A program made the position numbers and the translations under genes. The notes beneath the pieces are model-generated. The model did no database searches, was not told the DNA's origin, and saw only the letters and a list, made by a program, of their open reading frames with translations. A DNA stretch of 64,000 nt, from sequence record PQ435408.1; one strand, given 5' to 3'. Origin of the DNA: Escherichia phage vB_EcoP_CU10EC. Below, piece after piece: positions 4,385 through 5,409 of this stretch; position 1 is the first letter of the stretch, and each line of letters opens with the position of its first letter.

Positions 4385-4629
4385 AAAGAAAGATAGAGCT
4401 AGTACCTAATTGGAAGAAGTCCTGGAAATGGGCATCTGTTCAGATTAGTACGTTTGGTTTAATTCTGTTTTCTGCTGTAGATATCATTCAACCAATGGTG
4501 ACGGGACTACCTCGTCACATCCTGGAAGATATTCCTCATGGTTCCAATATTGCAATCGCACTGTTTGCCTTAAACATCATGGGTAGATTGATACGATTCC
4601 GTCCAAAGGAAGATTCACATGAAAGCTAA
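4369..4629 (+). CDS. Holin-like protein with two predicted transmembrane helices
   Basis: ATG at 4369 with GGGAG RBS 8 nt upstream; two hydrophobic segments (STFGLILFSAV, IAIALFALNIM) and charged C-terminus; ORF track lists a longer 4303..4629 version. Confidence 0.5.
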   Translation: MVRRLKRKIELVPNWKKSWKWASVQISTFGLILFSAVDIIQPMVTGLPRHILEDIPHGSNIAIALFALNIMGRLIRFRPKEDSHES

Positions 4630-4873
4630 ACAGAAACTTGCTGCAAAAGGTGGTGCAGTGGGAGGGGTTATCGCTGCTATTCTGGGGGCAGTGTTTTATA
4701 TGGAAGGAGGGTATATAAATAATCCTCGTGACCCAGGTGGTGAAACTAATCATGGTATTACCCAAGCTGTAGCTAAATCCCATAAAGAAGTTTTGCTGCA
4801 AAAGGTGGTGCAGTGGGAGGGGTTATCGCTGCTATTCTGGGGGCAGTGTTTTATATGGAAGGAGGGTATGTAA
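4619..4873 (+). CDS. N-terminal fragment of signal-anchor GH108-type endolysin, frameshifted by a 155-bp tandem duplication
   Basis: RBS aaggaag before ATG 4619; hydrophobic GGAVGGVIAAILGAVFY anchor; EGGYxNNPRDPGGETNHGIT motif typical of GH108 muramidases; frame lost at the duplication junction (4793). Confidence 0.6.
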   Translation: MKAKQKLAAKGGAVGGVIAAILGAVFYMEGGYINNPRDPGGETNHGITQAVAKSHKEVLLQKVVQWEGLSLLFWGQCFIWKEGM

Positions 4874-4947
4874 ATAATCCTCGTGACCCAGGTGGTGAAA
4901 CTAATCATGGTATTACCCAAGCTGTAGCTAAATCCCATAAAGAAGTT
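4638..4947. repeat. Two copies of a 155-bp unit inside the endolysin gene (1 mismatch)
   Basis: 4638-4792 matches 4793-4947 except atataaat versus atgtaaat; 155 is not a multiple of 3. Confidence 0.9.
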
Positions 4948-5409
4948 CTGGCTACTGAGTATGATTGGGATGGTTCTATGAAGGGTTTATCTAAAGAGAT
5001 GGCTGCTGAGATATACATTGATGACTACGTACTTAAGCCTAATTTCGTAGCCTTCGCTGATATATCTCCTGCTATAACACACAAACTGGTTGATGCTGGT
5101 GTTAACACAGGTGTAACCAGACCAGCTAAGTGGTTGCAGCAATCCCTCAATGAAATGTCTCGTAATGGCAAAGACTACCCTAAAATACAGGTTGATGGTA
5201 AAGTCGGTACAAGTACTGTTAATGCATATAAAGCATTACAGAAAAAACGAGGCAAAGTTGCAGCATGTCAGGTAATGATTAAGTTACTTGATGCCAAACA
5301 ACTGAACCATTACACCTCATTAAACATGCCGGATTTTACGTATGGTTGGGTAGCTAACCGAATTGGCAATGTGCCACTGGAGGCATGTAATGAAGATGCT
5401 AATCTCTAA
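4813..5409 (+). CDS. Endolysin body (GH108-like catalytic motif plus likely peptidoglycan-binding domain), remaining ORF after the duplication
   Basis: 198-aa ORF repeats the anchor and EGGYVNNPRDPGGETNHGIT motif, then continues; starts on GTG inside duplicate copy 2. Confidence 0.6.
   Translation: MGGVIAAILGAVFYMEGGYVNNPRDPGGETNHGITQAVAKSHKEVLATEYDWDGSMKGLSKEMAAEIYIDDYVLKPNFVAFADISPAITHKLVDAGVNTGVTRPAKWLQQSLNEMSRNGKDYPKIQVDGKVGTSTVNAYKALQKKRGKVAACQVMIKLLDAKQLNHYTSLNMPDFTYGWVANRIGNVPLEACNEDANL

Follow-up and report, generated by a model that had tools for sequence, protein, structure and literature searches.

Escherichia phage vB_EcoP_CU10EC: a centrally mismatched 155-nt tandem repeat in the endolysin gene very probably represents assembly-graph bubble arms written in series

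RESULTS

Lysis cassette and genomic setting

We have analyzed a 64,000-nt stretch of one strand of sequence record PQ435408.1, referred to below as the window. The phage is an N4-like E. coli podophage of the genus Gamaleyavirus, family Schitoviridae. Region 4000-6000 displayed 98.7% identity to Gamaleyavirus AN24P2 and 92-94% identity to about 50 other Escherichia, Shigella and Klebsiella phages. In the annotated relatives the genes are ordered as tail fibre, small ORFs, holin, endolysin (636 nt), Rz-like spanin with an embedded o-spanin, and portal, and the window keeps this order around the endolysin (Table 1). At the position of the window endolysin, the relatives carry an annotated 636-nt endolysin or N-acetylmuramidase gene. 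The holin-like gene overlaps the endolysin start by 11 nt, as it does in the relatives.

Upstream of the holin-like gene lies a 110-aa ORF (4052-4384), whose product is coiled in its N-terminal part and bears a single C-terminal hydrophobic segment (GIFGKWVWAIAGAIIGVLAAA). It gave only a weak match to DUF1515, below the cut-off. This ORF occupies the place of the second lysis-timing gene of N4 (the gp62/gp63 pair) and may be its counterpart.

Table 1. Coordinates of the lysis genes, the endolysin reading frames and the repeat sets in the window
Feature	Position	Strand	Remarks
Repeat stack with near-identical 133/152/152-nt units and a perfect 77-nt tandem	3469..4017	.	Around the terminator-like hairpin AAAAGCCCCGTAAGGGGCTTTT, just upstream of the lysis genes
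Holin-like gene, 86 aa, DUF7940	4369..4629	+	PF25612, 1.7e-12; holin in Mimir124, UE-S5a and Bp4
Endolysin gene as deposited	4619..5409	+	791 nt including the putatively artefactual 155-nt insertion; predicted true gene 636 nt, 211 aa
84-aa ATG ORF	4619..4873	+	Made by the frame shift at the arm 1/arm 2 junction; Pfam match to GH108 profile positions 3-36 only
Putative bubble arm 1	4638..4792	+	77 nt, A at 4715, 77 nt; Ile33 (ATA)
Putative bubble arm 2	4793..4947	+	77 nt, G at 4870, 77 nt; Val33 (GTA)
198-aa GTG ORF	4813..5409	+	Equals residues 14-211 of the predicted true endolysin
Rz-like i-spanin gene	5396..5896	+	Overlaps the endolysin stop; ORF list, Mimir124 annotation
o-spanin ORF	within 5556-5843	+	Embedded in the spanin gene in another frame; Mimir124 annotation
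Portal gene (756 aa)	5899-8169		ORF list
Two 155-nt arms, then a third copy of the right-hand 77-mer	29526..29912	.	Central C/A mismatch at position 78; pairs 29526-29680 / 29681-29835; repeat search
Two 155-nt arms in rIIA	48275..48584	. (rIIA on minus strand)	Central G/A mismatch at position 78; pairs 48275-48429 / 48430-48584
Four stacked arms of 221, 221, 155 and 155 nt	50045..50796	.	Repeat search and mismatch mapping

A 155-nt tandem repeat interrupts the endolysin frame as deposited

The 5' part of the endolysin gene contains a direct head-to-tail repeat with a period of 155 nt. An earlier sequence-only reading had placed the two copies at 4638-4792 and 4793-4947 and had noted one mismatch between them, and our analysis returned the same coordinates and the same single difference (4715 A vs 4870 G). 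The mismatch occupies the exact center of the repeat unit, position 78 of 155 (77 + 1 + 77). The two copies meet at 4792|4793, with the sequence ...CATAAAGAAGTT|TTGCTGCAAAAGG... at the junction. We have searched the endolysin duplication for junction microhomology that would favor replication slippage and found none, the flanking bases being different on both sides.

Since 155 is not divisible by three, the deposited sequence appears frameshifted and yields an 84-aa stub together with a 198-aa ORF that begins with GTG. The ORF list agrees with the sequence-only reading on this point. When either copy was removed in silico, a single 211-aa ORF starting at 4619 was obtained, as that reading had anticipated. 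The 84-aa ORF is no genuine gene product, and the 198-aa ORF owes its separate status solely to the insertion.

The interrupted arrangement could in principle exist in nature. The 155-nt duplication would then be present in the phage stock, and the gene would yield an 84-aa N-terminal fragment together with a 198-aa enzyme, translated from GTG 4813 after internal initiation or reinitiation. This is what the sequence displays as deposited, and the 198-aa product would keep most of the hydrophobic anchor as well as complete GH108 and PG_binding_3 matches (Pfam). The putative start is also preceded, 3-4 nt upstream, by AAGGTGGT. Weighed against the results described below, we consider such a duplication very improbable.

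The GTG is in frame and corresponds to endolysin codon 14, and it occurs with its near-consensus Shine-Dalgarno sequence in both copies (4644-4660 and 4799-4815). The bases of AAGGTGGT double as codons for a conserved K-G-G-A.

The collapsed gene is predicted to encode a SAR-type GH108 endolysin

We have compared the 211-aa protein obtained after collapsing the repeat with the Pfam profiles. Residues 24-113 matched Glyco_hydro_108 (PF05838; E = 4.2e-20, 72.5 bits, gathering cut-off 21.2 bits) and residues 117-196 matched PG_binding_3 (PF09374; E = 3e-8, 34.2 bits, gathering cut-off 24.6 bits). Both domains suggested for the rebuilt protein by the sequence-only reading were thus recovered above their cut-offs.

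The N-terminus of the collapsed protein reads MKAKQKLAAKGGAVGGVIAAILGAVFYMEGGY. Residues 11-27 (GGAVGGVIAAILGAVFY) form a 17-residue segment with 53% Gly+Ala and a mean Kyte-Doolittle value of 1.9; K2, K4, K6 and K10 lie ahead of it, and E29 comes after it. This region also holds the most hydrophobic 17-mer of the entire protein (residues 12-28). Such a Lys-flanked, Gly/Ala-rich segment, coupled to the Pfam match, bore out the proposal of a GH108 enzyme with an N-terminal anchor. Directly after the anchor, residues 29-32 form an EGGY motif that aligns with the EGGY of PDB entry 6v3z. We take the Glu of this motif to be the proposed catalytic residue of GH108.

The endolysin of coliphage N4, gp61, which founded GH108, belongs to the same PF05838 family as the collapsed gene. 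It is an experimentally supported signal-arrest-release (SAR) endolysin, an N-acetylmuramidase that is tethered to the membrane in a Sec-dependent manner and released upon membrane depolarization. It likewise carries a Lys-flanked, weakly hydrophobic, Gly/Ala-rich N-terminal segment, and it has the same neighbors as the gene studied here, with holin-type genes upstream and i-/o-spanin genes downstream. N4 itself belongs to the genus Enquatrovirus, whereas the window phage belongs to Gamaleyavirus. The SAR type was assigned because the anchor features match those used for N4 gp61. Judged from its sequence, the collapsed gene is predicted to encode an ordinary 211-aa SAR-type GH108 N-acetylmuramidase with a PG_binding_3 domain, both the activity and the mode of release being predictions.

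Closer counterparts are found within Gamaleyavirus. The endolysins of UE-M6, Bp4, pSb-1, ECBP1 and AN24P2 are 211 aa long, combine GH108 with PG_binding_3 and occupy the equivalent genomic position. The enzyme of Escherichia phage UE-M6 (UE-lysin; 211 aa, GH108 + PG_binding_3) has been expressed and proved active. Over residues 25-211, the Gamaleyavirus endolysins share 95-98% protein identity with the collapsed protein, and the deposited gene departs from theirs only by the putatively artefactual 155-nt insertion and a few substitutions. Translated searches found the family in 572 phage records, and the endolysin is unremarkable within this known kind.

Among solved structures, the closest in sequence is that of Salmonella Sen1395 (PDB 6v3z; E = 1.7e-26, residues 24-197), the alignment including the EGGYVN motif; further related GH108/PG_binding_3 muramidase structures are 6v40, 7dnp, 2ikb and 2is5. 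Unlike the phage enzyme, 6v3z and its kin are bacterial proteins that serve toxin or protein secretion and not phage lysis, and the 6v3z alignment begins only at residue 24, past the N-terminal anchor of the phage enzyme. The Pfam and PDB matches, together with the near-identical annotated relatives, make the family assignment clear.

Relatives carry a single copy

We have then compared the repeat region with related phages. The AN24P2 alignment stepped back by 155 nt exactly at 4792/4793 (subject 8795, then 8641). The region was single copy in all (about 66/66) of the phage records with at least 80% coverage of 4560-5000 and, among the 40 matches listed, the 441 query bases aligned to 284-286 record bases each. 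Related IMG/VR loci carried an uninterrupted endolysin homologue in 18 of 18 cases. The junction sequence at 4792|4793 found no match in IMG/VR, JGI metagenomes or GTDB genomes, and an exact protein look-up for an independent assembly, using the 198-aa, 84-aa and 184-aa products and the 756-aa portal protein, returned none on record. The duplication is therefore present in no relative and in no independent assembly among the viral, metagenome and genome collections searched, which argues against its being real.

The relatives also distinguish between the two copies. Codon 33 was GTA (Val), as in copy 2, in all nine relatives checked (AN24P2 and eight others), and the ATA (Ile) of copy 1 occurred in 0/9. 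When 4638-4792 was left out of the window, the first 57 residues of the endolysin became identical to those of AN24P2. Since the nine relatives carry the GTA of copy 2, the true sequence is most likely the window minus 4638-4792. The match of the G allele (Val33) to all nine is likewise the basis for regarding the true gene as a normal 211-aa SAR-type GH108 endolysin. On this comparison, copy 1 is probably the minor or erroneous one and the copy to delete. A mixture of two known strains was considered as the source of the two alleles; only the G allele occurs among the nine relatives, and so the A copy may stem from a rare variant or be erroneous.

Over the whole window, the relationship to AN24P2 is mosaic, with 98.5% identity over 3.9-16.3 kb, 88-95% elsewhere, and stretches devoid of an AN24P2 match (16337-17608, 28268-31971 and others). 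This reflects either the usual exchange of modules in Gamaleyavirus or possibly a strain mixture in the assembly.

In one relative, Klebsiella phage vB_Kpl_K57alpha1.2 (OY979416.1, 20000-36000), the annotation seems to be shifted relative to the sequence: the label RIIA/RIIB lysis inhibitor is attached to homologous DNA of the endolysin/holin region, the tail-fibre homologue is labeled Dda-like helicase, and nearly all CDS are flagged as partial or pseudo.

The same repeat geometry recurs across the window

A repeat search was run over the whole 64-kb window, and the mismatch positions were then mapped in each repeat unit. This revealed further tandem sets with related lengths (Table 1). Two of them, starting at 29526 and 48275, are clean 155-nt duplications like the one in the endolysin gene at 4638, and all three have their lone mismatch at position 78. 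For three such mismatches, the probability of all being central is (1/155)^3 = 2.7e-7, before the equal lengths are counted. The set at 29526-29912 lies among small hypothetical genes.

The duplication at 48275 had the same effect on its gene as that in the endolysin. The rIIA gene (minus strand, 46615-49334) is split by the 155-nt insertion into ORFs of 595 and 310 aa, and collapsing the repeat gave an 854-aa ORF. At 48429/48430 there was again a backward step of 155 nt in the AN24P2 alignment (subject 50681, then 50527).

The stack at 50045-50796 is more complex. In its 221-nt pair, which starts at 50045, there are two mismatches located 66 nt apart, giving a 77+1+65+1+77 layout. A single base is present in the stack in three alleles (C/T/G), and the final arm opens with a terminator hairpin in reverse complement (AAGACCTCCTCCGGGAGGTCTT versus AAGACCTCCCGGAGGAGGTCTT when the arms are compared). 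The stack surrounds this hairpin and adjoins the thymidylate synthase region.

Compared with IME11, SP5M and others, the window was in excess at four sites, by 155, 232 (155+77), 155 and 531 (221+155+155) nt. For IME11 specifically, the excess was 232 nt at the 29526 site and 531 nt at the 50045 site. None of these insertions occurred in the related Gamaleyavirus genomes compared.

Perfect 77-nt tandems were also found, at 3864/3941 (3864-3940 / 3941-4017) and at 29758/29835. The first of them closes the stack at 3469-4017, whose 133/152-nt units span 3469-3923. In this stack the right flank of the variant measures 77 nt and the left flank 75 nt, a second difference lying another 2 nt outward. 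AN24P2 carries the region in single copy (7834-8021).

The largest repeat is a perfect 1734-nt tandem with no mismatch (1-1734 = 1735-3468). It is in frame inside a 1155-aa ORF (6-3473) that occupies the tail-fibre gene position. One copy of the segment is present in NAN33P5 and K57alpha1.2 at 93% identity, and AN24P2 gave no match. This tandem is probably another mis-join, is not a multiple of k (see below) and may run past the window start.

DISCUSSION

Origin of the repeats

The length and symmetry of the repeat point to a de Bruijn graph. If vertices are k-mers and edges overlap by k, each arm of a single-base bubble is by definition 2k+1 long and has the variant at its center. For k = 77, which we take to be the standard or default value in SPAdes, the arm length is 2x77+1 = 155. 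Because the tandem units are 2k+1 long with a central variant and are accompanied by k-long overlaps, the window looks like graph edges that were written in succession. We conclude, from the sequence and its comparison with relatives, that the 155-nt duplication is almost certainly an assembly artefact, both arms of a single-base bubble having been written serially, and that it would be absent from the phage DNA.

The following course of events would account for the pattern. Short reads would have been assembled via a de Bruijn graph with an overlap length of 77, as in the SPAdes convention. The reads would have carried both A and G at endolysin codon 33, either because the phage stock contained a minor variant or because the same sequencing error recurred. 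The resulting two 155-nt edges, each composed of 77 shared bases, the variant and another 77 shared bases, would have been concatenated, rather than collapsed or reduced to a chosen one. Where variants are closer to each other than k, one longer compound arm would be expected, as in the 221-nt pair. Some k-overlaps would have been trimmed at the joins and others left, and the perfect 77-nt tandems look like edge overlaps of length k that stayed untrimmed. The real gene underlying the deposited one would be the collapsed 636-nt ORF, in a normal holin, endolysin, spanin cassette. The three-allele base and the flipped hairpin arm of the 50-kb stack are both typical of unsimplified graph edges, the hairpin arm being of the sort that arises at an inverted repeat, and support this reading. 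A normal SPAdes-type assembler pops a bubble and outputs one arm, whereas here both arms would have been emitted in series; this implies a faulty or manual joining step.

Certain features fit bubble-arm concatenation less well. The joins are uneven, as only some of them have lost the k-overlap. Clean 77-nt flanks could not be resolved in the stack at 3469-4017. The 1734-nt tandem (1-3468), whose length is no multiple of k, has to be explained separately; we provisionally attribute it to the same faulty joining. Furthermore, the good Shine-Dalgarno-like AAGGTGGT ahead of GTG 4813 means that a phage with a real duplication might still be viable.

Could the repeat instead derive from the closure of the genome? 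A 155-nt end overlap left untrimmed on the contig, with the genome later rotated, would by now be internal. Untrimmed end overlaps are a common cause of tandem duplications in phage assemblies, and the single mismatch could be an end-of-contig error. Yet there is one closure point per genome, and the window has at least three clean 155-nt cases in addition to the composite ones. Moreover, the overlap expected in a k = 77 graph is 77 nt and not 155 nt, and an end error is not expected to be exactly central. Because several sites share the geometry and the mismatch is central, contig-end overlap is effectively rejected as the sole cause, and we give it very little probability as the origin of the endolysin repeat. 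It may be the source of the perfect 77-nt tandems.

A genuine duplication in the phage stock fares no better. Besides having no junction microhomology and no counterpart in the collections searched, it must coincide with two more centrally mismatched 155-nt repeats, with the 221-nt and 77-nt repeats and with the split of rIIA. To our knowledge, no biological process yields 2k+1 duplications centered on a point difference. A faulty assembly is far more plausible than a phage that combines frameshifts in both the endolysin and rIIA genes with stacked terminators and a doubled tail-fibre segment. If the duplication were nevertheless real, a natural second start, which eliminates the Lys-rich N-terminus, would be suggested for the SAR endolysins of Gamaleyavirus, and the 2k+1 geometry elsewhere in the window would be a coincidence or a separate problem.

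Serially written bubble arms thus remain our preferred origin, and they alter one claim of the sequence-only reading. That reading, which appropriately called for confirmation by reads or PCR, took the endolysin to be truly frameshifted and perhaps rescued by reinitiation; the k = 77 bubble-arm signature, its recurrence and its absence in relatives speak against this. It was to be abandoned if reads supported the duplication and an intact endolysin was produced from another locus, or if profile searches did not support GH108, and neither outcome would reveal an artefact of the bubble-arm type. A literature search for a described SPAdes, bubble or tandem-duplication artefact of such a kind retrieved nothing relevant.

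Implications

The record, or at least its 64-kb window, appears to contain concatenated graph edges in at least six places. These would have created false frameshifts in the endolysin and rIIA genes and probably a doubled tail-fibre segment, and the record calls for reassembly before gene-level conclusions are drawn. The pattern provides a screening rule: a tandem repeat of 2k+1 with a single central mismatch, recurring at the same k, indicates concatenated bubble arms. The rule can be checked by machine and is usable on public phage genomes to find such errors. Annotated at face value, the locus leads to the call of a pseudogene or of a split endolysin, and to the wrong inference of an unusual lysis biology. 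As an artefact, the duplication would have no biological consequence, and the endolysin of this phage would be a normal one, of an already characterized type.
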